Below the pieces are notes generated by a model. That model was not told the origin of the DNA, did no database searches, and worked only from the letters and a program-made list of their open reading frames with translations. Of a stretch of 64,000 nucleotides of DNA, positions 826 to 31,500 are shown one piece after another; position 1 is the stretch's first letter, and each line of letters starts with the position of its first letter. Source of the DNA: an uncultured bacterium. GTDB taxonomy: Bacteria > Acidobacteriota > Thermoanaerobaculia > Multivoradales > JAHZIX01. A program made the translations under genes and the position numbers. The DNA is taken from contig CBDUPA010000001.1 of assembly GCA_965368975.1 (NCBI GenBank), forward strand, positions 64,001-128,000. The letters run 5' to 3'.

Positions 826-860
826 GTGCTCCGCCCCAGAATTTGGGTGCCCTGATCTGT

Positions 861-5816: not shown

Positions 5817-5856
5817 TTGGGGGGGCGTCTCCCCCGCTGCGGATCTGGGCGCGCGC

Positions 5857-7125: not shown

Positions 7126-7142
7126 CGAATCAGCTGTCCTCC

Positions 7143-9458
<2,316 letters not shown>

Positions 9459-9493
9459 GGTGATTCTCGCTCTGGAGTTTCTCCCGGGGCGCC

Positions 9494-9832: not shown

Positions 9833-10301
9833 AGTTCAGCGGGCAGCAGGCGGGCAGCGCATCAACCCTCGTCACCACTCTACGCAAGCTGAGCGAACGG
9901 GGCAAGCCCTGGAGGTCGCCTCTTACTGCGGTGGCTACGTGGGGGGTGATGCTTTCTGTATGTTCAAGTTTCAATAAGGGAGTTGTTGTTTCCTCCGGGT
10001 CTGCTATAGTTCATGGTAGACCAAAGCTTGAGGAATCCCCCCCTTCCATGCACGCACTGGTCATTCTTTGTATTTGACGATCGCTGAGAAAAACCAACGG
10101 AGATGGCGGTCCGCGGCCTCTTCCGGTATCGCTGGACTACTTTGTCCGAGAAGCGAGAAGCGCCCGTGTCCGGCAAGCACCTACACGGTCGACGGTGATC
10201 GATCATGTGCATCTTTCTATGTCGTCTGCTGTTACTCAGAAGTTCGCGAGGACTCGTGGCCGGTTGGGCCAGGGCTCGCGGTCGAAAGAAAGGGGTCCGA
10301 T

Positions 10302-12829: not shown

Positions 12830-12905
12830 AAAGCAGGTACAATGCCTCGGAGTCTGGCGGCCTGCGATCGGGCGGCCCTTTGGTACCAGTCCAGACCTCG
12901 TAACT

Positions 12906-13946
12906 ATGGCGACCAACTACCTGCAAGCTTACGGCGACCTGCTGCGTCGCATCGACGAGGCCGACTTCCACGTTTCGGAAGAAACGGAGAGGATCTCGCT
13001 GGTCGAAGACTTCGTGCCCAAGGTGTCGGAACTGCTGCAAGCCGGGGTCGATATGCTGCGCGAGACGCAGGCTTGGTACGAGTCTGACGACGCGCTGGAA
13101 GGCGCGGCCGACCGCGACGACGGGGATTCGCTGTCCGAAATCGGTGCGCTGATCTCCACCGAGCTGGCGGCCAGCAACATCGCCGACCTCGCTTTTGTCG
13201 CCCGCGGCGGTCTGCGGATCTGTCTCGATGAGCTGAAGTCTGCCGCCGCCAAGCGGCACATCTTCATGATCGCGTCCGGCTGCGACACCGGAATGCGCCG
13301 GCTGCGCAAAGCGCTGATGTCCGTCGAGTCGGCGATCGCCGAGTTCGAGGGCGCGCCGCAGCCGATGCACCGGCAAGAAGATCTCGAGACTTCGATCGAG
13401 ACGCGCCGCGCCTACGGTCGCCTGCGCCAATGCATCTTGGGGACGGGGCAGCCGGATGACCGTCAGCTCGGCCGGCGCCTGCAGGAGATCGCCGAGCATT
13501 TCGTCAAGCTGCGAACCCTGGCCATCTATCCGCTCATCCGTATCGGGGACCGTCTCGAGATGCGCGGCTTGTACAAGCGCATCCAGCTGTGGCGCCAGCA
13601 GCCAGATCGCGATCTGGTCGAAGGCCACCGCCTGTGGGTCGACCTCAGTGGCTTCGCGCGACTGATCCAGGAGATCAACAACCGCGAAGAACTCGGCGAG
13701 CACGACCGCCTGCTGCTCACCAAGGTCTGGCATCAACTGTTCGGCAAGCGTGATGTCAGCGAGGTCACCGCCGACCTGCTTGAAGAGCTGCGCCGCCTAG
13801 AAGGACGCGACGAGGACCTCGACCAGCTGCTCTCCGATCCCGGGGCGTATCCTGCCGAGGCCTGGCGCGAGACCCTGGAGCGCTTGCGTCGCACGCTGGA
13901 AGCCCAGCCACAGCAGCAACCCGTGCCAGTCGGAGCGCTCGGGTAA
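12906..13946 (+). CDS. Hypothetical, predominantly alpha-helical protein
   Basis: 346 aa ORF with normal high-GC codon usage and protein-like composition. No recognised motif. Confidence 0.7.
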   Translation: MATNYLQAYGDLLRRIDEADFHVSEETERISLVEDFVPKVSELLQAGVDMLRETQAWYESDDALEGAADRDDGDSLSEIGALISTELAASNIADLAFVARGGLRICLDELKSAAAKRHIFMIASGCDTGMRRLRKALMSVESAIAEFEGAPQPMHRQEDLETSIETRRAYGRLRQCILGTGQPDDRQLGRRLQEIAEHFVKLRTLAIYPLIRIGDRLEMRGLYKRIQLWRQQPDRDLVEGHRLWVDLSGFARLIQEINNREELGEHDRLLLTKVWHQLFGKRDVSEVTADLLEELRRLEGRDEDLDQLLSDPGAYPAEAWRETLERLRRTLEAQPQQQPVPVGALG

Positions 13947-14028
13947 GAGACCCGGTTCCCTGGTTCAGTTTCCTTGGCCTAGTTCCTCTGGCCCGGGGCC
14001 CCTGGCTGCGGGGCGTGTGCGGTCGAGA

Positions 14029-17000
14029 TCAGTCCTGCAACAACATCTCCAACCCGTCTCCCCCCGACAGCAGCGCTTCGGCTTCCTCGTCACTCATCGA
14101 TTCGAGACGCGCCAGTAGGGCTTGCAGCCGCCCCGGATCGGGAGCACCCGGCTTCGGGGGCGTGCGCCCTTGCAGCTGCCGGCGGTTGACCTTGCCGGTG
14201 CTGGTGAGGGGGAACTCGTCGAGCCACACCAGCTGGCTGGGGACCATGTAGCGCGGCAGGCGCTTGCTGAGGAACTGGCGTAGTTCGGACGTCTCGAGCG
14301 AGCGGTCGGGGTCGGTCAGCAGGTAGGCGACGAGGCGGCGGTGAGCACCGCCTTCGGGCACGATGACGACGGCCTGGCGGACTGCGGCGTGGGCTTCCAA
14401 GGCGTTCTCGATTTCGCCCGGTTCGACGCGATGGCCGTGCAGTTTGAGCTGGTAGTCGATCCGACCGAGGAACTCGAGGCTGGAGTCAGGGCGGCGGCGA
14501 ACCCGGTCGCCCGTGCGGTAGAGCCGGCCACCGGGGTGGTCGCTGAAGGGGTCGGGCACGAAGCTGCCGGCAGTGCGTGCCGGGCGCCCCAGGTAACCGC
14601 GCGCCAGGCCCTCGCCACCGATATAGAGCTCGCCTTCGGCAGCCAGCGGCAGCAGCGGGGCGGCTGGACCTCGCTGGGTGTCCAGGACATACAGGCGTGT
14701 GCCGCGGAGCGGCTGGCCGAGCGGCACTGGCAGTTGCCCTCCGCGCACTCGTTGCAGGCTCGACCAGACGGTGGTCTCGGTGGGGCCGTAGAGGTTCCAC
14801 AGTCGGGGTGCCGAGGTCGAAGCGCTGTTGCTTCTCTGCTTGGCGGCCGCGTGGCTGGTGGTCGAGGTGGTTGTCCTGGTGAGCCGTTCCGCCAGGTCGT
14901 CGGTCAGCGCTTCGCCGCCACACAGCAGCTTGAGGCCGGGTCGTTCGAGGCGTGACGGTGGCGTCCAGCCTGCGTCGAGCAGCAACCGCCAGGTGACCGG
15001 CGTTGCCTGCAGGACGGTGGCGCTGATGGCGCGTAAGCGCTGGCTCAGCAAGCGGCCGTCGCCGGCGGTCTCGTGGTCGACGACGTGGACGCGGGCGCCA
15101 GCGGCCAGTGGCAGCAGCAATTCGACGACCGAGATGTCGAAGGTCAGCGGGGTCACCGCGGCCACCGAGTCGGCGGGGTCGAAGCCGGGTTGGTGCAGCA
15201 GCGACGCTGCCAGGTTGGCGACGGACGCGTGGCACACCATGACGCCCTTGGGGCGGCCGGTGGAGCCGGAGGTATAGAGCACATAGGCCAGGTGGTCGCC
15301 GCTCGGAGGACCGAGCAGTGGCTCCCGTGGCTGTGCCGAACTCAGCGGTGCGTCGACGTCGAGCAGGGTGGGTACTGCATCGCCGCCGGCTGGCAGCTCG
15401 GGGCGCAGGCGTCGCAGTTGAGGGCCTTCGCCCAGCACGAGTGAGGGGCGTGCGTCGGCTACCAGGGCCCCCAGGCGGCGCGGCGGTAGCTGCGGATCGA
15501 GGGGCAGGTAGGCGGCACCGGCGCGCAGCACGGCCAGGGTTGCGACGACCAGCCGGGCCGAGCGCTCGAGGCACAGGCCGACCAGCGTCTCGGGACGCGC
15601 GCCGGCCGTGCGCAAGCGCGCCGCCAGGCGGCCACTCTCGTCCCATAGACGGCTGTAGTCGAAGTGCTCGACACCATCGTCGAGGGCGGGTTTTTCAGGG
15701 TGTGCTGTCGCCTGCGCGGCGATCAACTGCAGTAGCAGCGGGGCACTGCTGTCCGGGGGCCCATGCTTGGCGGTCTCGGTTCCCTGCACCTCGTGCAGTA
15801 GGAGCTGGGACTGCGCGGGGCTGAGCAAAACGCTGTGGGTGCAGTCGGCGTCCGGGTTCGCCAGCAGGCTCTGGACGGCCAGGGTGTACACCTCGCCGAT
15901 GGCGCGCAGCTGGGCGCCGGAGATGCGCGCCTCGTCGGCGACCAGGTCGAGGACCAGCGTGTCGGCCAGCGGGTTGCGCCGGAAATCGGCACGTAGAGCG
16001 AAGCTGGTGTGATCGAAGCCTTCGGCTTCGAGCGGTCGCAGGAAGTGCAGGTCGCTGAGTTCGTCGAGGGCGTGGAAGTGAGTGAAGTTGAACACCGTCT
16101 CGACCAGCCCGGTCTCGCCCAGCAGGCGCTGGATCTCGACCAGCGGCATGTGGCGGCTGGGGAGTAGTTCGCGCTCGGCCTCGAAGGCGGTGCGCACCAG
16201 GCCGAGCCAGCTACCGCTGGGCGTCAGCGCCAGCGGCAAGATGTTCATGTGCATGCCGAGCGTCTCTTCACTCCGCGGTAGGGCCGGCCGGCCGTTGGCT
16301 TCCAGGCCGGTCAGCACACTGCGCTGCCCGGTCAGGCGCTGCAGGGCTGCCAGGTGGGCGGCCAGCAGGGCGTGCTTGAGACTCACCTGAGCGCGACGTA
16401 CCAAGGCGCCAAAGTGCACGGGTGGTGGCAGCGGTAGGCTGAGGACGCGCACGCGCGGGGGGCCGGCTTGGGGTCGCCAGCGCGGCAATGGGGTCGCCTG
16501 GACGCCGGTCAGCTGCTGCTTCCACCAACGCCGCAGATGTGGGTTGCGCACGGCTTCCACCTCGCGTGCCACGAACTCGCGGAACACGACAGGCGGTGGC
16601 CCCAGCTGCAAGGGATTTCCGGCCAGCAGGCGATCGTAGCGGCGGAGCCACTCGGTACACAGGCGCGCCGTGCTCCAGCCGTCGAGCACGGCGTCGAAGA
16701 AGCTGAGGCCGACGGCGAATCCTTGTGCCAGGCGCAGCAGGTAGAAACCGACCAGCCCCGGCTCGCGCCAGGTGAGGGGCTGCGCCTTCTGCTCTTCCAG
16801 CCAGGTGGTGATCTCGGCTGCGGTCAAGTCCTCTACGCTGCTGAAGTCGACTTCGTGGAAGCGCACGGTGGTGCGGGCGTGTACCAGCTGCAGCGGTCGG
16901 CTGTACTCTGAAAGGTCGAAGGATGTGCGCAGCATCGGATGGCGGTCGACCAAGTCTTGCGCCGACTGGCACAACTGCGACGGGTGGAGCGGTCCTTGCA

Positions 17001-20000
17001 GGCGGCACAGGAAGATGTCGCGGTAGAGCGGGGCCCCCGGATCGTGCTGGATGTGGAAGACGATGCCGGTCTGTGTGGCGGTCAGCGGATAGGCGTCGAC
17101 ACACCCGGCCGGCAGGCGTTGCCGATCGTCGTCGCTGATCAGGCAGAACGGGTCGGGCGCCAGCACACGCGGTGCGCCGTGGCCCTCGTTCTGGCTGGCA
17201 TCTCCACGGCGCAGCCGCGGTGCCAGGGCGCGGATGGTCTGGTGACGGTAGAGGTCTTCCAGGGCCACGGTCCAGCCGCGTTCGGTCAGGCTGCCGCGCA
17301 CCTGCAGCGTGCGGATCGAGTCGCCGCCGAGTTCGAAGAAGTTGTCTTCGACGCCGATGTCGGGCAGGCCGAGAACGCGGCTCCACACGGCGGCAAGAGC
17401 ACGCTCGCGTTCGTCCTCGAGGACGTAGGTGTCGCCTGGCGGACGAGCTGGCGAGACGCCATCGCCAGCGTCCAGCGGCTGCCCCGTCAGCTGCCCGGCG
17501 GACTGCCTGCCGGCCGCCGGGCCGAGTTGCTGCAGCTGGCCACGGTCGACCTTGCCGCTCTGCGTGCGGGGCAAAGTGGTGAGTGGCACGAAGAGGCTGG
17601 GCAACAGCATTGCCGGTAGACGCTCGCCCAGGAAGGCGCGCAGTTCGGCGGCATCGGGAGCCTCCCCCTGGTAGGTGAACCACGCCACCAGCTGCGCCGG
17701 GGCGCGGTCGTGGCTGGCGAATGCCGGCAGGGCTTCGCCGCGAGGGGCTGCGCCAGCCTTGAAATGGCGCAGCTGGTTGGGCTCGGCAGTCGCTGCCGGA
17801 CTCCTACGGCCTTCGGCGCCGGACGGAGCTTGTGCCCTATCGGTAGGCCTGTGCGCGGGTTCGCTGGGATAGTGAAGGCCGACGATCGCGTCGGTGATCC
17901 GTGGATGCTCGCTCAGGGCGGCCTCCAACTCGCCGGCCTCGACGCGCAAACCCCGGATCTTGAGTTGGTGGTCGAGGCGCCCCAGGAAGAGCAGGGCGCC
18001 GTCCGGACGGTAGCGGACCAGATCACCCGTCCGGTACAGGCGTTCGCCCTGCTTGCCGGTGGGGTCGAGGATCAAGGAGGGGTCGGGTACGAAGGTGGCG
18101 GCGGTGCGTGCTGGAGCGCCCAGGTAGCCGCGCCCGAGACCGGCGCCTGCCAGTGCCAGCTCTCCAGGGATGCCCAGTGGCTGCAGGCGCAGCACGCGAT
18201 CGACAACGTGGCAACGTAGGTTGGCGATCGGCCGGCCAATCGGTACTTCGCGCAGCAGGTTCTGGCTCGGCCCGCCTCGTTGCTGCCGGTCGCCGCTGCA
18301 GTTCCAGGCGGTGACGTCGATGGCGGTCTCGGTGGGACCGTAGAGGTTTTCCAGCTGCACGCTGGGCAAGCGTTCCAGGCAAGCACGTGCCAGCGACGGA
18401 CTCAGCGCTTCGCCGCTGGCCACGATCCGGCGCAAGCTGCGGGCTTCACCTACCCCCGGCTCGTCAACGAAGGCGCGCAGCATGGACGGCACGAAGTGCA
18501 CCACGGTGACGCGCTCGCGGGCCGCCAGCCGGGCAAGTTGGCGGGGGTCGCGATGCACCCCGGGCGGGGCCACGATCAGTTGCGCCCCGGTCATCAGCGG
18601 CCAGAAGAACTCCCACACTGAGACGTCGAAGGTGAAGGGGGTTTTCTGCAGCACGCGGTCGTCGGCGCCGATCGGGTAGGCGAGTTGCATCCAGCGCAGG
18701 CGGTTGGCGAGGGCGAGGTGGCTGTTCATCGCCCCCTTGGGGCGGCCGGTGGAGCCGGAGGTGAACAAGACGTAGGCCAGCTGCCGTCCGTCCACGGGCC
18801 CTGGAGGCGCGTCGGCCTCCGAGGCTTCCCCCGGTCCCGGCAGCGTCTGGGGTTCGAGTTGGGCTCGGCCTTCTGGGTCCAGGCGCAGCAGCGGCGGCGT
18901 GGAGCGGGCAAGTGCCGGAGTCTCGGCGTCACCTAGCAGACACACGGGGGCGGCGTCGTCCAGCAGGGCTTCGAAGCGTCGCGCCGGCTGGTCCGGGTCG
19001 AGCGGCAAGAAAGCGGCACCGGCCTCGAGGACCGCGACCAGCGCCACCACGCGCGCTGCACTGCGCGGCAAGCACACGCCGACCAGGCGTTCAGGACCGG
19101 CTCCGAGAGCCCGCAGCTGCTGGGCCAGGGTCCGGCTGTGTGCGGCAAGCTGGGCGTAGGTCAATTCGACCGTCGGCACGTTGTGCTCTCCCGGGGCGCG
19201 CACGGCCAGCGCACCAGGGCTACGTTGCGCCTGAGCGCGGATGGCTTCGTGCACGAGTCCACCGAGTTGCCGGCGTGCCGCCCACGCGGCGCCAGCCCAC
19301 GCCGTGTCGTTGAACTCGTGGAGCAGCGCCTGGCGCTCTGCTGGCAGCAGGATCTTCAACTGGAGGCAGTCGATGGGGGCCTCGTGCGTCGGCAGGTCTC
19401 GGGCGAGCGCGACGAGCTGTCCAAGCCAGCTCTCGAATTGTCCTGCCCACCGCAGCACGGTGGTGGTGTCGAAGAGGTCCGTGCAGCCCTGCCAGTCGAG
19501 GAGTAGGCTGCCGCCAGGACCGTCAGCCAGGAACAGGGCCAGATCGAATTGCGCGGTCTGCGTGCGCAGGCGGAGCGGGCGCGCTGTCCAGGCAGCCAGC
19601 GGCAACTCGACGCGCTCGTCGGCGAGGGCGAATGCGGAGGTGCCCGCGGGCGAACCTGCCGGTGCGTGTTGCCAGCTGACCAGGATCTGGAACAGGGGCG
19701 AGCGGCTCGGGTCGCGGCGCGGCTGCAGCTGTTCGACCAGCTGGTGGAACGGGTAGCGGCGGTGGCGCAGGGTGGCCGCCAACTCGCCGCGCAGGCGGGC
19801 CAGACGCAGGGCGAAGGGATCGGAGCCGGAGATGCCGTGCAGCGCGGCGCGCAGGACCAGCGGGTTGACCAAGTAGCCGACGCGCTGGGCGTCCTCGACG
19901 CTGTCTCGGCCGTGGTACAGCGTCCCGAGTAGGGCTTGCTCGCTGTTGCTGACAGTGTTGCTGGCGACAGTACTGCTGGAGCTGAGGCCAACGGTGCGGC

Positions 20001-23000
20001 GGAGCCAGGCTTCGAAGGCCGTGAGCACCACCAGGAAGGGGGTCGCGCTGTGCCGGCGAGCCAAGTCGCGCAGGCCGCTGGCGGTGTCAGGCGGTACTTG
20101 CCGCAGCCAGCGCTCGCCGCGGTCGCTCTGCAGCGCGGGCCGTGGTCGATCGGAGGGGAGTTCGAGGGGAGGTGGCAGCTCCTGCTGCCTCGCTGTCTCT
20201 CTCTCGCCGTGACCGGGTAGCAGCGGTCGTAGATGCTGGACGGCAGCGGCTGCCATGTTGCGCGCGTCGGCGCTGCTCAGCCAGGCGCGCTGGCGCAGTA
20301 CCCAGGCAGCGTGGTCGCCGGGCACTGGTGGCAAGCGGCGGTCGGCGTAGAGGGCAGCCAGCTCCTGCAACAGCAGGGCGACCGAGCCGAAGTCGGCGAC
20401 CAGATGGTGGACGGTGAGGAGCAGGACGTCGCCGATCTGGGCTTCGTGGTCCTCCACTTTGGCCGGCATGGCAACGCCGCTCCACAGGTGTAGGCGGATC
20501 AGGGGGCCGCGTTCGAGGTCGAAAGGTCGGTGTGCCTGGTCGGTCATCTCTGCGCGCAGGGCTGGCAGCGAGCGGCCGGCGGCTTCTTGCACATCGACGG
20601 CTGGCGGTCGCGAGTCGCTGGCGGCGCGCCGCTGGCGCGGTGGACCGCCACCTGCGCGGAAGGTCATGCTCAGGCCGGAATGGCGCTGCAACAGCTGCTG
20701 GAAGGCTTGCCGCAGTGCGCCATGTTCGATCTGGCCAGGGATATGGACCGCCACCCATACGTTGTAGGCGGCGCTGCGCGGGTGCAGTTGCTGCAGGAAG
20801 AAGAGTGCTTCCTGGCCGGGGGTCAAGGGCAGGTCGATGGTGCTATCGACAGGGCTCTCGACGGTGCCGACGTCGGGTGCCGCGGTAGGCTCCTCGACAC
20901 GGGAAGCCGCGTCGAAACTCTCGTGCTGCATCGCGTCTTGCTGAGAAGTCTCCTGCTGAGAAGTCTCCTGCCGGTGGGGGGGCTCTTGCAGTTCAGCGCC
21001 CTGTGTCGCTGGCTGCGCCAGGTCGCGCAGACTGGCACCGCTGAGCAGGTCCGAGAGGTCGACGTCGAGGCCGTAGGTCGCCAGGCTCTGTTGGAGTTCG
21101 GCGGCGGCCAGCGAATCCAGCCCGTAGTGCAGCAGAGGGCGGTCAGGCTCGGGTGGTTGCGCCAGGCCCAAGCAGCGGGCCACCTCTTCGCCCAGCCGGT
21201 GCAGGCCGGGTGTGCCGAGTCTGGTGGCGGGCTTGCCGTTCTCGTCGATCCGTGTCTGATCGGCCGTTTCCTGGGGGGACGTTTCGCCGCCCGTTGGCAG
21301 GGCTGTCGCTTCGATCCGTGACGGGCCGTACCAGGCCGCGACGACTGGCAACTGGCCGTCGAGCCAGCCGAGCCGGCAGGCTCGACGCTGAACCTTGCCG
21401 CTGGAAGTGCGGGGCACGCCGCCGTGGCGCACCAGGAGGATGGCCCAGGCGGTCACCTGGTGTTCGGCTGCCAGCGCCTGGCTGATCGCCGCCCGGATCG
21501 GTGCCAGTCGTCGCTCGGGCGGCTCGCCGCTACTGGAGCCGGACCTGGCCTCGCCGCTGACGGCACCGATCTCGCGCAGGGCAGCCGCTTCGAGTTCCAG
21601 CACCAAGACCAGGCGTTCGCCGTCGCCATCGTCGAAACCGAAGGCCGCTGCGGCGCTGGGTCGTAGGGCGAAGTGACTCTCTTCAGCACTGCGCTCGAGA
21701 TCTTGCGGATGGTGGTTGCGGCCGCGCAGGATGATCAGATCCTTGAGACGGCTGGTGAGGAAGAGTTCGCCGCCGTGCAGGAAACCGAGGTCACCGGTGC
21801 GCAGGAAGCCCTGTGCTTCCTGAGCCGAGGATACGTCCGTAGTGCCCTTGCTCGTAGCGTCCTTGCTCGTAGTGCCCTTGCCCGAGGAGTTGTCTACCAA
21901 GCGGGCTTCGAAGATGCGCTGCGTCGCCTCGGGCTGGCCATGGTAGCCGGCGGTCACCGACGGACCGGCGAGCCAAACCTCGCCGACCTGACCTGGCGGG
22001 CATGCCTCCTTGGTTTGCGGATCGACAATTCGCACGCTGACGCCGGGGGCTGGTGTACCGCAGCTGACGAGGGTCTTGGTGAGTGCTGGTGGCGTGTGCG
22101 CGACAGTCGTCTCGACGGCCTGGTGATGTTCCAGAGCAGCTCGCTGGAACTGACGTACGACGGGGGGTTGGTCGGCCGGGCTACTACTGACGAGGAGCGT
22201 GGCTTCGGCCAGGCCGTAGCAGGGCAAGAAGGCGCTCTGGGCAAAACCACAGCGGCCAAAGCGGCGACCGAAGGCGGTGAGGCTGCCGGCCCGGACGGGC
22301 TCGGCGCCGTTGAAGGCGACGCGCCAGCTGCTGAGGTCGAGGCCTTCGAGGTCGGCGTCGGGGATGCGCCTCCGGCACAGGTCGTAGGCGAAGTCGGGGC
22401 CACCACTGGTGGTGCCGCCGAAGTGATGGATGGCACGCAGCCAACGCACCGGCCGGCGCAGGAAGGCCACCGGTGCCATCAGCACGCAGCGACCGCCGGC
22501 GTACAGGGGTTGCAACATGCCGCCAATCAAGCCCATGTCGTGGTAGAGCGGCAGCCAGCTGACGACCACGGTGTCAGCGTCGTGGCCGAAGGCTCGGTAG
22601 ATCATGGCCTGGTTGGCCAGCACGTGGCGGTGCGCGACCCGCACGCCGCGCGGCTGGGCAGTCGAGCCGGACGTGTACTGGAGGAAAGCGAGGTCGTCGG
22701 CGTCCGGGGTGTGGGGATGCCAGGATTCGGCAGCGGCGTCGTCGATCTGGTCGGTGGCCAGCCACTGCACGTCGGCCGGGGCTTCGATCGCCTTCTGTAG
22801 GCGCCGGGCGAGGCCCTCGGTGGTCAGTATGCAACGGGCGCCGGAGTCGCGCAGCAGGGTCTCGGTCCGTCCGGCTTCGCGCCGCTGGGGCGGGTAGGCG
22901 GGAACCGCGACGACACCGGCGTACAGGCAGCCGAAGAACGCGTTGACGAAGTCGGGGCCGGCGGGATAGAGGAGCAGGGCCCGCTGACCGCTCAGGCCGC

Positions 23001-23232
23001 GCGCCTGCAACTCGGCGGCGATGGCGCGCGCCGTGCCATCGAGGTCGCCGTAGCTGGAGCTCTCCGGCAGCTCGCTGTCGGCGGCCGCCTTGTCAGGGAT
23101 CTCACCATCGGCGAGAAAGGCATACAGAGGCCGCTCCGGGTGGCGCTGAGCCCGTTCACGGGTCAGAGTCACCAGGTCTCTGGCATCCGGCGGGAGCGCC
23201 GGGAAGTCTCTGGCGCCGTCGCGGGTGGTCAT
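14029..23232 (-). CDS. NRPS: FAAL-ACP-C-A(Ser)-PCP-C*(His-less)-A(Gly)-C-terminal docking helix, with no terminal PCP or TE
   Basis: [22 protein letters not shown]; ACP GLDSL; C1 HHLVAD; A1 code ~DVWHVSLIDK; PCP GGDSI; C2 SFFDAVLDGWS; A2 code ~DIVQLGLVWK with A10 TGK; ends LESMSDEEAEALL. Start placed at ATG 23232. Confidence 0.88.
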   Translation of the reverse strand: MTTRDGARDFPALPPDARDLVTLTRERAQRHPERPLYAFLADGEIPDKAAADSELPESSSYGDLDGTARAIAAELQARGLSGQRALLLYPAGPDFVNAFFGCLYAGVVAVPAYPPQRREAGRTETLLRDSGARCILTTEGLARRLQKAIEAPADVQWLATDQIDDAAAESWHPHTPDADDLAFLQYTSGSTAQPRGVRVAHRHVLANQAMIYRAFGHDADTVVVSWLPLYHDMGLIGGMLQPLYAGGRCVLMAPVAFLRRPVRWLRAIHHFGGTTSGGPDFAYDLCRRRIPDADLEGLDLSSWRVAFNGAEPVRAGSLTAFGRRFGRCGFAQSAFLPCYGLAEATLLVSSSPADQPPVVRQFQRAALEHHQAVETTVAHTPPALTKTLVSCGTPAPGVSVRIVDPQTKEACPPGQVGEVWLAGPSVTAGYHGQPEATQRIFEARLVDNSSGKGTTSKDATSKGTTDVSSAQEAQGFLRTGDLGFLHGGELFLTSRLKDLIILRGRNHHPQDLERSAEESHFALRPSAAAAFGFDDGDGERLVLVLELEAAALREIGAVSGEARSGSSSGEPPERRLAPIRAAISQALAAEHQVTAWAILLVRHGGVPRTSSGKVQRRACRLGWLDGQLPVVAAWYGPSRIEATALPTGGETSPQETADQTRIDENGKPATRLGTPGLHRLGEEVARCLGLAQPPEPDRPLLHYGLDSLAAAELQQSLATYGLDVDLSDLLSGASLRDLAQPATQGAELQEPPHRQETSQQETSQQDAMQHESFDAASRVEEPTAAPDVGTVESPVDSTIDLPLTPGQEALFFLQQLHPRSAAYNVWVAVHIPGQIEHGALRQAFQQLLQRHSGLSMTFRAGGGPPRQRRAASDSRPPAVDVQEAAGRSLPALRAEMTDQAHRPFDLERGPLIRLHLWSGVAMPAKVEDHEAQIGDVLLLTVHHLVADFGSVALLLQELAALYADRRLPPVPGDHAAWVLRQRAWLSSADARNMAAAAVQHLRPLLPGHGERETARQQELPPPLELPSDRPRPALQSDRGERWLRQVPPDTASGLRDLARRHSATPFLVVLTAFEAWLRRTVGLSSSSTVASNTVSNSEQALLGTLYHGRDSVEDAQRVGYLVNPLVLRAALHGISGSDPFALRLARLRGELAATLRHRRYPFHQLVEQLQPRRDPSRSPLFQILVSWQHAPAGSPAGTSAFALADERVELPLAAWTARPLRLRTQTAQFDLALFLADGPGGSLLLDWQGCTDLFDTTTVLRWAGQFESWLGQLVALARDLPTHEAPIDCLQLKILLPAERQALLHEFNDTAWAGAAWAARRQLGGLVHEAIRAQAQRSPGALAVRAPGEHNVPTVELTYAQLAAHSRTLAQQLRALGAGPERLVGVCLPRSAARVVALVAVLEAGAAFLPLDPDQPARRFEALLDDAAPVCLLGDAETPALARSTPPLLRLDPEGRAQLEPQTLPGPGEASEADAPPGPVDGRQLAYVLFTSGSTGRPKGAMNSHLALANRLRWMQLAYPIGADDRVLQKTPFTFDVSVWEFFWPLMTGAQLIVAPPGVHRDPRQLARLAARERVTVVHFVPSMLRAFVDEPGVGEARSLRRIVASGEALSPSLARACLERLPSVQLENLYGPTETAIDVTAWNCSGDRQQRGGPSQNLLREVPIGRPIANLRCHVVDRVLRLQPLGIPGELALAGAGLGRGYLGAPARTAATFVPDPSLILDPTGKQGERLYRTGDLVRYRPDGALLFLGRLDHQLKIRGLRVEAGELEAALSEHPRITDAIVGLHYPSEPAHRPTDRAQAPSGAEGRRSPAATAEPNQLRHFKAGAAPRGEALPAFASHDRAPAQLVAWFTYQGEAPDAAELRAFLGERLPAMLLPSLFVPLTTLPRTQSGKVDRGQLQQLGPAAGRQSAGQLTGQPLDAGDGVSPARPPGDTYVLEDERERALAAVWSRVLGLPDIGVEDNFFELGGDSIRTLQVRGSLTERGWTVALEDLYRHQTIRALAPRLRRGDASQNEGHGAPRVLAPDPFCLISDDDRQRLPAGCVDAYPLTATQTGIVFHIQHDPGAPLYRDIFLCRLQGPLHPSQLCQSAQDLVDRHPMLRTSFDLSEYSRPLQLVHARTTVRFHEVDFSSVEDLTAAEITTWLEEQKAQPLTWREPGLVGFYLLRLAQGFAVGLSFFDAVLDGWSTARLCTEWLRRYDRLLAGNPLQLGPPPVVFREFVAREVEAVRNPHLRRWWKQQLTGVQATPLPRWRPQAGPPRVRVLSLPLPPPVHFGALVRRAQVSLKHALLAAHLAALQRLTGQRSVLTGLEANGRPALPRSEETLGMHMNILPLALTPSGSWLGLVRTAFEAERELLPSRHMPLVEIQRLLGETGLVETVFNFTHFHALDELSDLHFLRPLEAEGFDHTSFALRADFRRNPLADTLVLDLVADEARISGAQLRAIGEVYTLAVQSLLANPDADCTHSVLLSPAQSQLLLHEVQGTETAKHGPPDSSAPLLLQLIAAQATAHPEKPALDDGVEHFDYSRLWDESGRLAARLRTAGARPETLVGLCLERSARLVVATLAVLRAGAAYLPLDPQLPPRRLGALVADARPSLVLGEGPQLRRLRPELPAGGDAVPTLLDVDAPLSSAQPREPLLGPPSGDHLAYVLYTSGSTGRPKGVMVCHASVANLAASLLHQPGFDPADSVAAVTPLTFDISVVELLLPLAAGARVHVVDHETAGDGRLLSQRLRAISATVLQATPVTWRLLLDAGWTPPSRLERPGLKLLCGGEALTDDLAERLTRTTTSTTSHAAAKQRSNSASTSAPRLWNLYGPTETTVWSSLQRVRGGQLPVPLGQPLRGTRLYVLDTQRGPAAPLLPLAAEGELYIGGEGLARGYLGRPARTAGSFVPDPFSDHPGGRLYRTGDRVRRRPDSSLEFLGRIDYQLKLHGHRVEPGEIENALEAHAAVRQAVVIVPEGGAHRRLVAYLLTDPDRSLETSELRQFLSKRLPRYMVPSQLVWLDEFPLTSTGKVNRRQLQGRTPPKPGAPDPGRLQALLARLESMSDEEAEALLSGGDGLEMLLQD

Positions 23233-23881
23233 GCTTTCTCTCGGGCTCTCCTGCTCTGTTGCTCTCCTCGGGATCTCGGCTGGCAACGAAAGGACGCTGG
23301 CGGGACCGGATGGAAAGTCAGCGTAGGCTGCACGCCTGACCTTGTCAACCTCAGATCAATCTTCAGTCGCACAAGAAAGGACGGGCAGAGATGAATTGCT
23401 ATCTTGTAACATTCAAATTTGGAAATGTGTCTAACATTGGCGATTGTGCATGGTTTGGCCAAGTTTTTTGTCCCGCTTCGAGAACACATCCACACCTTCA
23501 TAAACAAAGGGCTAGTCATAGAATGCCGCTGGTTGCGGTGGGACGCCGAGGTGTCGAGCTAGCCCGGAGTTCGCGAGAACTCTTCCCTTTCATTCGCCGG
23601 CGAGATCGGGCGCGATCCGCTGAAGCCGGAGACTCAACTGATTCCGAGGGATGGGCAGGAAGGTGGGCCCCCTTGTGGTGGACACTGATCAAATTCGTGC
23701 GTCAAAACAACTGGATCGCCAAAGTCGCCGCAGCTCGCACTCAGCCCGGAGTGTGGCGTACTGGAATGCCCCGCACTGGAATGCCCCGTACTGGAATACA
23801 CTGTCTCGGGATACTCCGTATAGGAACGCTTCGTCGAGGTCTGCCCCAGGTGGGGCGGACTCTGGTCGTGGGAGGTGGGTC
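23233..23881. promoter_or_regulatory. Divergent intergenic/promoter region of the NRPS-PKS cluster
   Basis: ~650 bp between head-to-head genes, with an AT-rich core at ~23390-23520 and a GGAGG RBS before ATG 23882. Confidence 0.55.
23757..23801. repeat. 15-nt tandem repeat (3 copies, followed by degenerate copies)
   Basis: CGTACTGGAATGCCC CGCACTGGAATGCCC CGTACTGGAATACAC. Confidence 0.8.
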
Positions 23882-25372
23882 ATGGCTGCATTGAGTACAG
23901 GTCAGGGTGTCGCCGGGCAAGCCGGTGCCGACCGCATCGAGGACATTTACGGTCTTTCGCCGTTGCAGCAGGGGATGCTCTTCCATATCCTGTCGGCTCC
24001 GGGGTCGCGGCTGTACCTGGACCAGACCCTGTGCACCCTCGACGGCGCGCTCGATGTCGACGCCTTCCAGCGCGCCTGGCAGACGGTGATCGACCGCCAC
24101 CCCGGCTTGCGGACCGCCTTCATGTGGGAAGGTCTGAGCAAGCCCGTGCAGGTGGTGTACCGTGAAGTGCCACTGCCTATCGAGCAGGCTGATTGGCGGC
24201 ACCTGAGCCCGAAGGCACAGGCGTCGCAGCTGCAGTCGTTCCTGGCCGAGGATCGCCGCCAGGCCTACGACCTGACCCGGCCGCCGCTGACCCGCCTGTA
24301 CCTGATCCGCATGAGCGACGACAGCTACCAGCTGGTCTGGTCGGTGTCGCACCTGGTGGTCGATGCGTGGTGCTCGTCGATCGTGCTGGACGAGGTGGTG
24401 CGTTTGTACGAAGCCTACCGCCAGGGCAGCCTGCCGGTGTTGCCGGCGGTGCACCCGTACCGGGATTACATTGCCTGGCTGCGGCGGCAGGAGCTGGCGC
24501 GCGCCGAGAGTTTCTGGAGCGACTACCTGCACGGCTTCAACGTGCCGACCGGGCTCAGTCTCGAAGATCCCAGTGGCACCTGGCCGGGGACCGCATCGGG
24601 CTTCCGCCAGGAGGATGCCACGTTGCCGGAACTCGATGTCGTGGCTCTGCGTAGCCGTGCCCGCGACCTGCAGGTGACGCTCAACACGCTGGTGCAGGCT
24701 GCCTGGTCGCTGGTGCTGGCGCACCGCACCGACCAGGCGGACGTCGTGTTCGGTACCGCGGTCAGCGGCCGGCCGCCGAGCTTGCCGGGGGTCGAGTCGA
24801 TCGTCGGCTTGTTCATCAACACCTTGCCGCACCGGGTCGGACTGCAGCAGGACGCGACGCTCGGTCCCTGGCTGCAGCAGGTGCAAGCGCGGCAAGTCGA
24901 GATTCGCCAGTACGAGCACACGCCGTTGGCCAAGATCCAGGGTTGGAGCGAGATTCCCGCCGGCTTGCCGCTGTTCGAGAGCTTGGTCGTGTTCCTCAAT
25001 ATCGTCGATCTCGAGCGCCAGGACACAGGCAGTCTCGACCTGCGCAATCTGCGCTACGTCGGCCGCCCACACTATCCGCTGACCCTGCAGGTGACACCGG
25101 GACGGCGCGAGTTGCGGTTGGAGGCGGTCTATGATGTGGCGCGCTTCCGGCAGATGACGGTGCTCGAAGTGCTGGGCCAGCTCAAAGCGGTGCTCGGCGT
25201 GCTCGCGATGCGACCGCATGCGACGACGACGATCAGCGATGTGCTCTCGCTCCTGGCGCGGTCGGATCGGGACCGTCAACTGCAGGAGACGCGGCGGCGG
25301 CGTGATTCCAATACCGGCAAGTTGCGTTTGACCAAGGCCATCAAGGTCAAGCTGCCTCCTTCCCGTTCCTGA
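23882..25372 (+). CDS. Stand-alone condensation domain protein (DCL-like)
   Basis: IEDIYGLSPLQQGMLFH, active-site variant SHLVVDAW, VSGRP and GLFINTLP. Basic C-terminal tail. No A or PCP domain. Confidence 0.88.
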   Translation: MAALSTGQGVAGQAGADRIEDIYGLSPLQQGMLFHILSAPGSRLYLDQTLCTLDGALDVDAFQRAWQTVIDRHPGLRTAFMWEGLSKPVQVVYREVPLPIEQADWRHLSPKAQASQLQSFLAEDRRQAYDLTRPPLTRLYLIRMSDDSYQLVWSVSHLVVDAWCSSIVLDEVVRLYEAYRQGSLPVLPAVHPYRDYIAWLRRQELARAESFWSDYLHGFNVPTGLSLEDPSGTWPGTASGFRQEDATLPELDVVALRSRARDLQVTLNTLVQAAWSLVLAHRTDQADVVFGTAVSGRPPSLPGVESIVGLFINTLPHRVGLQQDATLGPWLQQVQARQVEIRQYEHTPLAKIQGWSEIPAGLPLFESLVVFLNIVDLERQDTGSLDLRNLRYVGRPHYPLTLQVTPGRRELRLEAVYDVARFRQMTVLEVLGQLKAVLGVLAMRPHATTTISDVLSLLARSDRDRQLQETRRRRDSNTGKLRLTKAIKVKLPPSRS

Positions 25373-25595
25373 TTGATTCGAAAATGCAGGCCCGTGCTAC
25401 GTGCTTCTGCCGGCGTCCCGCGCCGCGACGGGGGACGTGTGCTGAAGTTGCGGCCGTACCTGGAGAAACGAGGCGAGAGAGGTGATCTGGAGCGATCCAT
25501 CCAACCAAGATCTGAGACGGGAATCGTCGGCCCAGGCTGGCGATCGATCGCTAGAGCAGGGTTGGGATCACCTGGGTGAGGTGGAACGAGAGATA

Positions 25596-28500
25596 ATGGA
25601 CGTCATGGGGCAGGGGAACGAGGTCGAGATCGAAGGCTTCCGGCTGTCCCCGCAGCAGGAGCAGGTCTGGCGACTACAGCGCGGAGGAAGCCTGGCACAC
25701 CAGGCTTGGCTCGGAGTGCGTCTTCTCGGCGACCTTGATCTCGACGTGCTCGAAGCCGCCCTGGTCGAAGTGACCCAGCGGCACGAGAGCTTGCGCTCGA
25801 GCTTCCTCGAGATACCGCACCTGCCGTTTCCGCTGCAAGTGGTGCACGAAGAGGCGCCGCAACGCTGGCGTCTGCTCGACCTGTCGCTGGTCGATCGCTA
25901 CCAGCAGGATCTGGAGGTCGAGGCCCTGCTGGAGCAGGAGACCACCCGTTCCTGGCGACTTGTCTCCCGCCAGCTGATGCGGATCACCCTGGTGCGTCTG
26001 GGTATTGCCGAGCACCTGCTGCTGCTGCACCTGCCGGCCCTGTGTGCGGACTATCACACGCTGGAGACCCTGATGGCCGAGCTGGCGACCTGCTACCAGC
26101 CGCACGAAGAAGTCGCCGCCTACGCACGCCCAATGCCCTACACGCAGTTCGCCGAGTGGCAGAAGCAGCTACTGGAACTCGACGAGGCGTCCGAAGAGCG
26201 TCAGTTCTGGGCGCAGAAGGACCTGGAGGGCTTCGGTTCGCTGCGCCTGCCGTTCGAGCACCGGCGACCGCTCGAGGCTCCCTTCTTGCCGCGCCACCTG
26301 CGCTGGGCGCTGTCGCCCACCACGCTCTACGAGATCGGTGCGTTCCTGGGGGCCGACAGTCACGCAACCGGGGCCTTTGCCTTCAGCACCTGGTTGATCC
26401 TGCTCGGCCGGCTGTGTGACCAGTCACGCGTCGGCGTCGCCTACCGCTCGAACGGACGTGCCTACGAGGATCTCGAGCAGACGCTCGGCTTGTTCGAGAA
26501 GTATCTGCCGGTGCAGGAGCAACTGCACGATGAACGCTCCTTCCTCGACCTGCTGCACCAGGTGCAGGCCACGTTGCAGGAGGTCGAAGACTGGCAGGAG
26601 TACTTCGAGTGGTCGCAGGTGTTCGACCAGGATCTGGCGCCCTTCTGCTTCGAGCTGCGGCATTGGCCGCGCAAGCTGGAGAGTGCCGACATCGAGTTCG
26701 AGGCCGCACGGCTGTATGCCTGCAGCCACCGCTTCAAGCTCAAGCTGAGTTGTGTCGTCAGCCACGATGGGCTCAGCTTCGAGCTGCACTACGACCCGGA
26801 AGTCTACCGTCGGCGCGACATCCAGCGACTGGCTGACGAGTACGAGACCCTGCTGCGCAGCGCCGGCTCCGATCCTGGGCGGCCGCTGCGCCAGCTCGAA
26901 CTGCTCAGTCAGGGGGAGCGCCAGGCACTGCTACGCGAGTTCACCGGCAAGGACGCCGCCGGCTATGCCCGCCGGCCGCTGCACGAGTGGATCCAGGAGA
27001 CCGTGCACCAATACCCCGAGCGCACGGCCGTGGTGTGCGGACACTATGCTGTCAGCTTCCGCGAGCTGGAGCAGCGCGCCAACCGCCTGGCGCACCTGTT
27101 GCAACACCTGGGGGCTGGTCCGGAGGTGCTGGTTGGCATCTCGATGGAGCGCTCGGCCGAGCTTGTGGTCGGTCTACTGGCGATCCTCAAGGCGGGGGCC
27201 GTGTACGTGCCGCTGGACCCGGAGTATCCGCGCCAGCGCCTCGAGTTCATGCTGCAGGACAGTCGAGTGCCGATCCTGCTGACGCAGGAACGGCTCGCCG
27301 TCAGTCTGCCGAGCCGCCGCACGACGCTGGTCCTGGTCGGCACCGATGGCACGGCCCAGGCGCTCGACCGTCGCAGCGAGGATGGCCTGGTGCCAGTGCC
27401 GCCGCCCGACCCGGGTGACGAGCAGGCGCCCGACGTCGATCTACGGGGCGATGCTGGAGCCTACGCGATCTACACCTCGGGCTCGACCGGCCAGCCGAAA
27501 GCAGCGCTGATCAGCCATGGCGCCATCGTCAATCGTCTGCAGTGGATGCAGGAGGCCTTCCACCTGGACGTTGACGACACGGTGATTCAGAAGACACCGT
27601 TCAGCTTCGACGTCTCCGTATGGGAGTTCTTCTGGCCGCTGATGACCGGCGCGCGCTTGGTGCTGGCCCGGCCCGGCGGCCACCGGGATGCTGCCTACCT
27701 GGTGCGGCTGGTACGTCGGCAGGCGGTGTCCGTCGTCCACTTCGTGCCGTCGATGCTGCAGTTCTTCGTCGGTGAAGCGGGCGTCGCCCACTGCGACACG
27801 CTACGGCTGGTCGTGTGCAGTGGTGAGCCCTTGCCGCCGGACCTGGAACAGCGCACCCTGCAGAGCCTGCAGGCCGACCTGTACAACCTCTACGGCCCCA
27901 CCGAGGCGGCGGTCGACGTCACCTCCTGGCGTTGTGTCGGCGAAGACGGCGAGGGCGACTCGGTGCCCATCGGCCGTCCGATCACCAATATCCGTATTCT
28001 GCTGCTGGACGAGGAATTGCAGCCGGTACCGGTGGGCGTGCCGGGCGAGCTGTACATCGCCGGCGCCGGCCTCGGTCGTGGCTATCTGGGCCGGCCGGCC
28101 CTGACCGCCCAGGCTTTCGTGCCCGACCCTTTCAGCACCAGCCTGGGGGACCGCATGTACCGCACGGGCGACCTGGCCCGTGGTCGCTCGGACGGCGCCA
28201 TCGACTTTCTCGGCCGCACCGACGCGCAGGTCAAGATCCGTGGCTTCCGGGTCGAGCCGGGCGAGATCGAGGCCGTGCTGTCGTTGCACGAGGGGCTGCG
28301 CCAGTGCGCCGTGGTGCCGCGCGAAGACCTGCCCGGGGATCTGCGGCTGGTGGCCTACTATGTGCCCTCGGACTCACCCTCCGCCGCGTCGATGCCCGGC
28401 GAAGCAGGCTCGGAGCCGGTGACGCCGCAGAGTCTGCGTGCCTGGCTCAGCCGTCAGGTGCCCGAGTACCTGGTTCCGGCCGCCTTTGTGCCGTTGCCGC

Positions 28501-31500
28501 AGTTGCCGCTCACACCCAGCGGCAAGCTCGACCGCAAGAGCCTGCCGGCGCCGGAGCGTGCCTTGGGACGCAGCGCCGCACCACCGCGCGACGCCACCGA
28601 AGAGCTGATGGTGGAAGTGTGGTGCAAGGTCTTGGGCCTGGACACGGTCGGCATCCACGACGATTTCCTGGAACTGGGCGGCGACTCCATCCTGTCGCTG
28701 CAAATCGTTGCCGCGGCCAATCAGGCCGGTCTGTCGCTGGTTCCCGCCCATCTCTTTCAGCATCGCACCATCGCCACCTTGGCCGAAGTTGCCGGTAGCG
28801 CGGCCATCGTCCAGGCCGAGCAGGAGCCGGTGGCAGGGCCGGTGCCGCTGACGCCGATCCAGCGCTGGTTCTTCGAGCGCCATACGCGGCGGCCCGAACA
28901 CTGGAACCAGAGCCTGCAACTGGTGCCCCGACATCGTCTCGAGAGCGTCCTGCTGTCCGCCGCGGTCAGTCGCCTGGAAGTACTCCATGATGCCCTGCGC
29001 CTGCGCTTCGAGCACGACAGCCACGGCTGGCACCAGCGCTGCCTGACGCTCGATGAAGCGGCGGCCGAAGGGGATCGCGTGCTGGCTGTTGACCTGAGCA
29101 CCCTGCCCCCCGCCGATCGTCCGGCTGCTCTTGCCGCCACCGCCGCACGGCTACAGGCGTCGCTGGCCCTGGGCGGTGGTCCGCTGCTGCGCTTGGCGCT
29201 GATCGAACTGGGCCAGCCAGACGGTGTCGATGCAGAGGCCGTTCATCCAGAGGGTGCCCATCCAGAGGGTGCCGACCCAGAGGGCCTGTACGGGCAGCGT
29301 CTGCTGATCATCCTGCACCACCTGGTGGTCGACGGCTTGTCCTGGCGCGTGCTGCTGTCGGACCTGGAGCAGCTCTACGCCGCACTCGAAGCTGGTGAGA
29401 CACCGCAGATGCCGGCCAAGACAGCCTCCTACCGGCAGTGGTCCGAGGCGCTGGCGCTACGCGCCCAAGAGCCGTCCGTGGCTGGCGAGCTGGAGTACTG
29501 GCTGGCCCTGCCCTGGGACGATATCGTGCCCCTGCCGCTGGACGCGTTTGTCGACGGTGAGTTGCTGGCCACCGGGCCCGCCGACGTCGAGGAGCTGGCG
29601 CAGTGCAACACGGTGGAGTCCGCCGAGACGCTGATTCTCGAGTTCTCGGCCGAGGACACGCACTCCCTGCTCACCGCCGTGCCGCGCGCCTACCGTACCG
29701 AGATCGACGATGTGCTGATCACCGCGCTGGCGAGGACGCTGTCGCGCTGGACCGGCTCGACCTCGCTGCTCTTCGACCACGAGGGGCACGGCCGCGGCGC
29801 CCTCGGCGACGCGCTCGACGTGTCGCGCACTGTTGGCTGGTTCACCTCGCTCTTCCCGGTGGTGCTCGACTTTGCGCAGGGGAGTGATCCAGGCGCTGCG
29901 CTGGTGTCGGTCAAGGAACAGCTACGGCGGCTGCCGGAAGGCGGCAGCGGCTACGGCATGCTGCGCTACCTGGACAGTCAGGGCGATGCGGCGCTACGAC
30001 TGCGTCAGCTGCCGGCGGCGCAGGTCCTGTTCAACTATCTCGGCCAGGTCGACCGCGGGCGCGACGAGGACAGCCAGTGGCAGCCCCTGCTCGCCGATAC
30101 CCTGACTCTCGGCGAGCGCGCCCCGGAAGGTCGTCGCAGCCATCCGCTGGAGGTCGATGCCTTGGTCCGAGAGGGCCGCCTGCGTGTGCGCTGGACCTAC
30201 AGCAAGAACTTGCACCGGCCCGAGACCATCGCCCGAGTGGCCGAGTTCTTCGACACCGCCCTGACGTCGCTGATCCGCCACTGCCTGGAGCCCGAGCGCG
30301 GCGGCTACACGGCTTCCGACTTCGCTGCCGCCGACCTGCCGGCGCCGCAGCTGGATGCGCTGCTGGCCGAGCTCGGCGGTGGTGCGGTGGTCGAGGACAT
30401 CTACCCACTGGCGACCTCGCAGGAGGGCATGCTGGTCTACTTGCTGCTGCAGGGTGAGCACACCGAGGTGTTCACCAACCAGCTGCACTGCCGGCTCTCC
30501 GGCCCACTCGACCTGGCGGCCTTCCAGCGCGCCTGGCAGCAGACCGTCGACCGGCACGCGGCGCTCCGCACGTTGTTCCGTTGGGAAGGACTCGAGCATC
30601 CGATCCAGGTAGTGCGCGACCGCGCCGAGCCGGAGTGGCAAATCGAGGACTGGCGGCAGGTACCGCCGGCTGAGCAGCGATACCGGCTGGACCGTTTCCT
30701 GGAGGACGACCGCGCGCGCTCCTTCGACCTGCGGCGGGCACCGCTGCTGCGTCTGACCCTGTTGCACACCGGTGAGCAGGTGTACCATTTCGTCTGGACC
30801 TACCACCATCTGGTGCTCGATGGCTGGTCGCTGTCGATGCTGCTCAAGGAGGTCTTCGAGCTCTACCGGGCGGCGTCGATCGGTCGCCAGGCACAGTTGC
30901 TGGCGGCGCAGCCCTACGGTGACTATGTGCGCCATGTGCGTGGCCAAGATCCGGCCGCGGAGGAGGCCTTTTGGCGCCAGGCGCTGGCTGGCTTGCAGGC
31001 ACCGCCGCCGCTGCGCATCGAGCGCCACGGGAGCGCTCTGCCGGAGGGCGAGCGCGAGCACGGTAGTGCCGATGTGCAGCTGTCCGAGGAAGCTACCAGC
31101 GCACTGCAGGCGGCGGCACGGCGCCAGCGCCTGACGCTCAACACTTTGTTCCAGGGTGCCTGGGCCCTGCTACTGCATCGCTACAGCGGCAGTCGCGACG
31201 TGGTTTTCGGTGCCGTCGTTTCGGGGCGCCAGATCGGCTTCCAGTCGGTGGTCGGTCTGTTCATCAATGCGCTGCCGGTGCGCCTGCATGTCGACCCCGA
31301 GATGCAACTCGCACCGTGGCTCGAAGAACTGCAGTCGCAGCAAGTGGAGCAGCGCGACTTCGAGCATGTGCCGCTAGAGCAGATCCAACGCTGGAGCGGG
31401 CTGCCGCGCGACACCGCACTGTTCGACAGCCTGGTGGTGTTCGAGAACTATCCCGTCGACGATTCGTTGCAGGAGGGGGCCGGCGACCCAGGGGCTGGCC

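Follow-up and report, generated by a model that had tools for sequence, protein, structure and literature searches.

A BlmVI-like initiation subunit with a histidine-swapped CmodAA domain and a candidate remotely encoded carrier in an uncultured acidobacterium

The closest described counterparts of the system treated here are the initiation proteins of bleomycin-type assembly lines. In BlmVI, the second condensation (C) domain is of the CmodAA type and lacks the catalytic histidines of motif C3 (PMC11342130). In that source, an assignment based on the product exists among His-less CmodAA domains only for BlmVI-, TlmVI- and ZbmVI-C2, namely to conjugate addition, and for bleomycin this conjugate addition is itself only hypothesised. 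A bleomycin-related cluster is also carried by plasmid pAMDE1 (NC_019394) (PMC3777966), whose BlmVI homologue is a nonribosomal peptide synthetase (NRPS) of 2721 amino acids (aa) with the order FAAL-ACP-C-A-PCP-C-A and the tail LVSQIESLSDEEVEKLL, where ACP and PCP are acyl and peptidyl carrier proteins and A is an adenylation domain. Since the gene that follows it encodes a docking head, a PCP and a C domain, the carrier of BlmVI-type proteins is taken to sit on the next protein. Here, we have analysed a gene of similar build, gene A, in a stretch of 64,000 nucleotides (the window; positions 64,001 to 128,000 of contig CBDUPA010000001.1, assembly GCA_965368975.1) from an uncultured acidobacterium, together with its second C domain, C*, and the carrier that would serve its last module.

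The domains of gene A were called by Pfam and NCBIfam scans of the translated frame (Table 1). A preliminary description of this DNA had proposed the order A(Ser)-PCP(GGDSI)-C*-A(Gly)-docking tail and had likened it to BlmVI; both points were confirmed by the domain scans and motif positions, and the pAMDE1 homologue has the same order and also ends in an A domain with a docking tail. Like BlmVI/BlmV as represented by pAMDE1, gene A thus combines FAAL/AL-ACP-C-A(Ser)-PCP-C-A with a docking tail and has no carrier in cis. The terminal A domain (A2) carries A3 at residue 2672, YRTGD at residue 2923 and the A10 lysine within GKVNRR (3031-3036), so that the A3, A7 and A10 Lys reported earlier as intact were all located. 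It is also undivided, with AMP-binding_C at residues 2958-3032 and neither a methyltransferase nor a reductase. The specificity codes of A1 and A2, extracted by motif position, are DVWHVSLIDK and DIVQLGLVWK, which by comparison with Stachelhaus codes we take to specify Ser and Gly, respectively, as had been proposed. No carrier domain C-terminal to A2 was detected in gene A by the Pfam and NCBIfam scans, no carrier in a small open reading frame was detected within the window by a carrier hidden Markov model (HMM), and no window protein begins with a carrier that could be a hidden PCP in another subunit. The best explanation is that gene A encodes the lipo-initiation subunit, BlmVI-like in build, of a line of mixed NRPS and polyketide synthase (PKS) type.

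Table 1. Positions in the window of gene A, its domains and motifs, and the two genes that follow it
Feature	Position	Strand	Details
Gene A, BlmVI-like initiation NRPS	14029..23286	-	single frame, 3085 aa; recorded protein 3067 aa, starts at M19 (23232)
FAAL domain, gene A	21343..23178	-	residues 37-648; FAAL families NF004509, NF038339
ACP, gene A	21013..21198	-	residues 697-758; GLDSL
Starter-position C domain, gene A	19408..20832	-	residues 819-1293; HHLVADFGS
A1, gene A	17539..19239	-	residues 1350-1916; code DVWHVSLIDK (Ser-type)
PCP1, gene A (donor carrier for C*)	17221..17400	-	residues 1963-2022; GGDSI at 1987-1991 (17314-17328)
C*, gene A (CmodAA-type condensation domain)	15787..17094	-	residues 2065-2500
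C* C3 motif SFFDAVLDGWS	16672-16704	-	residues 2195-2205; Asp2198 codon 16693-16695
C* KHALLAAH-type motif	16354-16383	-	motif before C5
C* C5 motif TLGMHMNILPL		-	His2346, codon 16249-16251
A2, gene A	14167..15735	-	residues 2518-3040; code DIVQLGLVWK (Gly-type); all core motifs present
C-terminal docking tail LLARLESMSDEEAEALL, gene A	14032..14166	-	45 residues, immediately C-terminal to A2
Gene B, stand-alone DCL-clade C domain (SHLVVDAWC)	23651..25372	+	counterpart of BlmV C half; true start probably near 23882
Gene C, C(no His)-A(Ser-type)-PCP(GGDSI)-E-C-A-PCP	25482..34121	+	next subunit in relatives' colinear order

On the sequence evidence, C* is a CmodAA-type (dehydrating) condensation domain, and the dehydration would be carried out by C* itself. 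When compared with all Protein Data Bank (PDB) chains, C* matched McyA (8jbr; 3.1e-77, 263 bits) and AmbE (7r9x; 2.9e-50, 175 bits) best, followed by PvdL (2e-28, 103 bits). These closest solved sequences share with C* a KxxLLAAH-type motif, the R that opens C6 and DGWS, whereas they keep HH in C3 and Phe in C5, where C* has F-D and His. In trees of C and epimerisation (E) domains (245, then 265 domains, from this genome, its relatives and two plasmids), C* and its orthologues grouped with the modAA domains of pAMDE1 and three other domains of this genome (supports of 1.0 with 10 members, 0.913 with 15 and 0.999 with 16). This clade was sister to that of the C domains located after an E domain (DCL), which includes gene B. 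The motif [K/R]xxLLxxH was found in nine of 10 members of the C* clade vs none of the 235 other C/E domains. The CmodAA donor trait, a Ser/Thr-type residue on a GGDSI-type carrier, was also observed, as judged from motifs and from the assigned specificity codes. It has been reported that [K/R]SVLLAAH before C5 and R(R) at the opening of C6 are specific to CmodAA domains (Dreckmann et al., PMC11342130); C6 opens with RH in C* and with RR in its orthologues. The earlier claim that C* is not an ordinary DCL or LCL domain was therefore supported by the PDB matches, the clade placement and the KHALLAAH motif, and a grouping with ordinary DCL/LCL domains, which had been named as the contrary outcome, was not seen in the trees. 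Heterocyclisation (Cy) domains have DxxxxD in place of HHxxxD. A Cy assignment for the two aspartates of C3 was rejected on the spacing in C* (D-xxx-D) and on its clade placement.

A GGDSI carrier ahead of such a domain, pointed out in the preliminary description, fits a known pattern represented by NocB T4 (PMC10880069). Like C*, the C domain of NocB module 5 belongs to the D-clade and is fed by Ser on a GGDSI carrier; in NocB, dehydration is followed by amine addition at the beta carbon (PMC10880069). NocB C5 has the motif HHHxxxDG with two essential histidines, whereas C3 of C* has none and the site reads FFDAVLDG.

To characterize the conservation of this arrangement, the C*-A didomain was searched against 40 related genomes. 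Full-length matches including the tail were found in four genomes of the same family (41-48% identity), with frames of 3043, 3053 and 2776 aa and one fragment cut by a contig end, and gene A has the order FAAL-ACP-C-A-PCP-C-A-tail without a carrier in all four. In a list of protein homologues of C*-A ranked by summed bits of multi-module proteins, the relatives were 31-42% identical among the matches listed. Translation and motif search placed the C3 replacement SFFDAVLDGWS exactly where it had been described. Across the five genomes the motif starts with SFFD, SFLD, SFFD, SFFD and TFVD, and A-[VL]-LDGWS comes next in every case. Because the C3 Asp ([F/L/V]D) is kept in 5/5 orthologues that are 40-49% identical over C*, the FD motif is neither a chance event nor a product of decay.

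We also gathered 79 loci from genome contigs and compared 93 CmodAA domains by alignment columns. The second C3 position in the 79 loci was H in 49, D in 20, N in five, T in two, E in two and A in one. A C5 His (G-x-H-x-N; Phe in others) occurred in 23 of the 93 domains, all of which lack the second C3 His, and in none of the 55 domains that keep it; the remaining 15 domains have neither. The His-less domains formed one clade of 38 (support 0.928), in which 37 members lack the second C3 His, whereas outside this clade 54 of 55 domains keep it, the exception being the BlmVI-C2 homologue of pAMDE1. The C5-His domains were concentrated in a subclade of 23 (support 0.976; 21 of 23 members), and C* was found within it in a clade of six (support 1.0), all with Asp and C5 His. 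Judging from these columns and trees, C* belongs to a widespread multi-phylum CmodAA subclade in which the second C3 His was lost (D/N/T) and a C5 His was gained. The His-swap loci are labelled Acidobacteriota, cyanobacteria, Herpetosiphon, actinomycetes and a deltaproteobacterial metagenome-assembled genome. Where the upstream sequence is visible, His-less CmodAA domains come after FAAL-ACP-C-A-PCP with a Ser- or Thr-type A code. No published description of the His-swap variant was found in the literature searched, although the supplement of PMC11342130 (Table S2, Figs S5-S7) may contain domains of the H-D type.

An HMM built from the carriers of the window was then used in a six-frame scan of the whole genome (G000). 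Among 258 carrier domains, the only NRPS-type carrier in a small frame was a stand-alone PCP on another contig, C10 (G000:C10:73186-73833, minus strand; Pfam PP-binding 8.8e-18). It consists of an N-terminal helix LLHRIDGLSPAKRKLLALCLQ, a GGDSI carrier and a C-terminal stretch LRPEDFPEAELTSDDL, the last of which resembles the end of an E domain ahead of a DCL domain (compare gene C). Thus, the earlier statement of a cluster without a free PCP gene is right for the window and wrong for the genome, and the proposed genome search for a stand-alone PCP with an N-terminal docking motif yielded this one protein. Using fixed patterns, we identified docking tails in 14 NRPS/PKS frames, 13 of them after a carrier and only that of gene A after an A domain. 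Docking heads were identified in 15 frames, of which 14 have the head before a C domain and only the C10 PCP has it before a carrier. By architecture, the C10 PCP is the unique matching carrier for gene A, onto which it would dock and by which it would be loaded in trans. Stand-alone orthologues of this PCP (54-58% identical including the head; frames of 196-266 aa) were present in exactly the four relatives with gene A, and no match to the C10 PCP was obtained in the remaining 36 genomes of the search, among them one of the same family without gene A. The resulting co-occurrence in 5/5 genomes is suggestive and not statistical, because the genomes are kin. Predicted complexes of the last 135 residues of gene A with the C10 PCP (five-row alignments for each) scored 0.16 and 0.15 against a mark of 0.32 and were counted neither way. 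Taken together, a split-module architecture with a trans carrier appears highly probable. If so, a 'missing' NRPS carrier can be a docking-helix PCP encoded far from its cluster, and genome mining based on clusters would overlook it.

The C10 PCP gene is divergent from lon and is followed by genes for a MacB/FtsX permease, a DAO-type flavin adenine dinucleotide oxidoreductase and, in G000, an amidase (L001, G000:C10:63000-82999). Its position beside lon is kept in the relatives; in two of them (L029 and L031), genes for a carbamoyltransferase and for a GDSL-like protein of 800 aa separate the PCP from the permease. These neighbours may tailor or export a carrier-bound intermediate. In three cyanobacterial versions (L041, L044 and L045), an E-type domain with a PLTPIQxWFFEQ start comes behind the carrier that follows the His-less C domain, and the DFPEAEL tail of the C10 PCP may be a leftover of such a domain.

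The location of the carrier differs among the 79 loci: it is fused in cis (Herpetosiphon), encoded by a gene of its own next to the NRPS gene (several cyanobacteria), joined to the domain that comes next, or absent from the vicinity. Three genomes of the same taxonomic order have a fused head-PCP-C protein of 643-970 aa after the NRPS, as does pAMDE1, whereas here the counterpart of BlmV is split into two genes, the C half being gene B and the PCP lying on the other contig. Further differences from BlmVI/BlmV were observed: the second residue is Asn-type there and the A2 code is Gly-type here; the C3 residues are Phe plus Gly/Ala in BlmVI-type domains (PMC11342130) and S-E in pAMDE1, and F-D in C*; C* has a C5 His; and the downstream modules of the window are unrelated to the formation of the pyrimidine or bithiazole of bleomycin. 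A further parallel is present on plasmid C of Trichormus variabilis ATCC 29413 (NC_007412), with the order FAAL-ACP-C-A(Ser-type)-PCP-C(no second His)-A-tail, followed by a gene for a 146-aa docking-head GGDSI PCP and then a C-domain gene. All three genes are adjacent, whereas the PCP is remote in G000, and, unlike C* and gene A, the Trichormus protein has H-N in C3, no C5 His and the A2 code DSALIAEVWK. We found no characterisation of this cluster. The Trichormus cassette (L026, NC_007412 1-45000) adjoins a TonB-dependent siderophore receptor, an ABC importer and an iron-uptake porin, which hints that at least this member makes a metal chelator. Corallorazine Crz1/Crz2 (PMC11342130) is likewise similar in having a lipo-initiated Ser module, a CmodAA domain, a Gly A domain and the carrier on another protein. 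In Crz, however, an N-methyltransferase lies inside A2, A9-A10 are on Crz2, a reductase forms the end of Crz2, and the line finishes once two residues are joined, whereas A2 of gene A is whole and without a methyltransferase, the carrier is stand-alone and the line continues. Cyanochelin (PMC12628792) and myxoglucamide (PMC13638107) were considered as known products and rejected, as their architectures differ. The locus is probably a BlmVI/BlmV-type split initiation module, in a lineage whose nearest named loci are labelled Acidobacteriota. It has three new twists: the carrier is remote, the predicted acceptor is Gly, and C* is a member of a His-swapped CmodAA subclade of which no description was found. 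If true, this points to an unexplored lipopeptide family in Acidobacteriota and cyanobacteria.

Based on these observations, we propose the following course of assembly, to which as a whole we assign a probability of roughly 0.6. FAAL-ACP and the first C domain would make N-acyl-Ser on PCP1. The last module would be an ordinary C-A-PCP module with its carrier split off: A2 would adenylate Gly and load the stand-alone C10 PCP, recruited by docking of its N-terminal helix onto the C-terminal tail of gene A. C* would then dehydrate acyl-Ser-S-PCP1 to acyl-dehydroalanine and link it to the amine of Gly-S-PCP. For this bond, attack at the beta carbon, that is, a BlmVI-like conjugate addition giving an N-beta-substituted diaminopropionate, is modestly favoured over a plain amide, because the only product-assigned His-less CmodAA domains are of the Blm type and the His loss is clade-wide; the preference is a tentative one, and attack at the beta carbon by the Gly amine remains a somewhat doubtful part of the scheme. 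Finally, gene B, a DCL-type C domain corresponding to the C half of a split BlmV, would hand the chain to gene C. More speculatively, the whole His-swap subclade might make a C-beta to N bond instead of an amide, so that the head groups would be N-acylated diaminopropionate or diaminobutyrate with an N-beta substituent and might bind metal as in bleomycin, with Asp and the relocated His as a new catalytic pair and, in this lineage, a free and remotely encoded acceptor carrier recruited only by its docking helix. In that case, the step of bleomycin-type initiation that is least understood would gain a sequence rule, Asp/Asn/Thr at the second C3 position together with C5 G-x-H-x-N, and many natural variants would be available for testing that step.

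It should be noted that several points weigh against this course of assembly. HHxxxDG is retained in all dehydrating C domains that have been characterised, and NocB C5 depends on the equivalent His (PMC10880069), so the activity of C* without a C3 His is an assumption. The BlmVI-C2 homologue of pAMDE1 fell basal to all sampled CmodAA domains and outside the 38-member His-less clade, and function is thus not transferable from BlmVI by close kinship; together with the hypothetical nature of the Blm step, this lack of a close sister weighs against a C-beta to N bond. A Michael adduct would also bridge two carriers, and an additional step would be required to free PCP1. With regard to the carrier, the kinship of the relatives means that co-occurrence counts overstate independence, and the C10 PCP, whose gene lies on another contig with those for lon, the MacB-type permease and the DAO-type oxidase, could work for that operon in addition to gene A or in its place.

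Different explanations were compared with the proposed one. Ordinary CmodAA chemistry as in corallorazine would dehydrate acyl-Ser and form a normal amide with Gly-S-PCP, leaving N-acyl-dehydroalanyl-Gly on the trans carrier, with the C5 His replacing the C3 His. This agrees with Crz1, which has the order C-A(Ser)-T-CmodAA-A(Gly) and whose T domain is supplied by a second protein (PMC11342130), and with the CmodAA motifs of C*; since the C5 His is gained strictly where the C3 His is lost, a catalytic residue that has moved would fit, and PCP1 would be freed without an extra step. However, 55 of the 93 CmodAA domains keep the second His and its loss is confined to a single clade, which speaks for a change in the reaction and not for a neutral swap, and the His-less C2 domains of BlmVI, TlmVI and ZbmVI are assigned to conjugate addition (PMC11342130). 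We consider a plain amide rather unlikely. If conjugate addition does take place, the two-carrier bridge would be resolved by a NocB-like ring closure, in which the secondary amine attacks the PCP1 thioester, a beta-lactam closes and the chain moves to the trans carrier; the GGDSI donor carrier and the D-clade C* are as in NocB module 5 (PMC10880069). Yet H790 and H792 of the HHHxxxDG motif are essential in NocB C5 (PMC10880069), C* has FD at this site and the window showed no further gene related to beta-lactams, which makes a beta-lactam very unlikely.

The preliminary description had favoured another model, in which Gly that is not carrier-bound attacks dehydroalanine on PCP1 and the N-carboxymethyl-diaminopropionate stays on the same PCP, so that no extra carrier is needed. 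This model accounts for the lack of a carrier after A2 in the gene and the window, and both C3 histidines are indeed missing from C*. It is contradicted by the existence of a dedicated docking-head PCP that co-occurs with gene A, and by homologous systems in which the carrier is adjacent or fused, being on the next protein in pAMDE1, where the BlmVI homologue itself passes to a PCP-C protein, and on the next gene in Trichormus. In addition, adenylating Gly would be purposeless if free Gly added via its amine, and an intact and conserved A domain would be pointless for such a nucleophile; we regard this model as highly improbable. Hardly more credible is the view that gene B performs the sole real condensation and that the C*-A didomain is either in decay as a relic or serves just as a scaffold. 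Although the canonical histidines of C* and a cis PCP are missing and a truncated A-domain remnant occurs in gene F of the same cluster, the didomain is kept in five genomes at 40-49% identity with all A core motifs and a constant Gly-type code, and the C3 Asp and the C5 His are invariant in the six-member clade. Moreover, two condensations are required ahead of the second module of gene C, whose first C domain is His-free.

The rest of the assembly line was also examined. The plus-strand genes B and C (Table 1) are followed on the same strand by gene D (FAAL-FAAL-ACP-KS-AT-cMT-ACP), gene E (C-A-PCP-KS-AT-carrier-KR) and gene F (C-A-PCP-KS-AT-KR-ACP-C-(A remnant)-TE), and the region 825-14029 is not biosynthetic. 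Genes A, B, C, D and E are colinear in three of the four relatives, and in the fourth gene A stands alone; in the genome of the window, gene A is inverted relative to genes B-F.

Several features of these genes deserve mention. The C3 motif of gene B is S/Y-H-LVVDAWC, with the first His lost, DG changed to DA and Ser to Cys, and it is kept in three of four orthologues; the C-terminal tail RRRRDSN(S/T)G.LR.TK is likewise conserved, and the first 77 codons of the frame form a low-complexity stretch, YWNAPHWNAPYWN, and are probably non-coding. The first C-like domain of gene C (25482-26981) has HLPALCAD as C3, with P-A replacing HH (P-S or P-A in the orthologues), and this conserved His-free domain is possibly of an interface type. 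At the N-terminus of gene D (34147-38136), tandem FAAL-type adenylating domains precede the first ACP, whereas the orthologues in the relatives have one. The C-terminal part of gene E (48646-51462) shows the unusual order KS-AT-carrier(GGHSL)-KR, with the docking tail directly after KR and not after a carrier. The last module of gene F (59748-62645, residues 2763-3727) consists of a C domain, an A remnant of ~100 residues with only A6/A7-like stretches, a linker and TE, and no cis carrier was detected in this terminal C-(A remnant)-TE part at an E-value of 0.05 or better. The open-ended frame after gene F (62596-63999) matched no Pfam family; its N-terminal stretch is hydrophobic and is followed by Asp-/Tyr-rich repeats with the look of an outer-membrane barrel. 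Finally, assembly lines are extremely abundant in the 7.1-Mb genome: the 258 carrier domains found by the carrier HMM are distributed over 89 frames, and single frames reach 12957, 13272 and 14804 residues.

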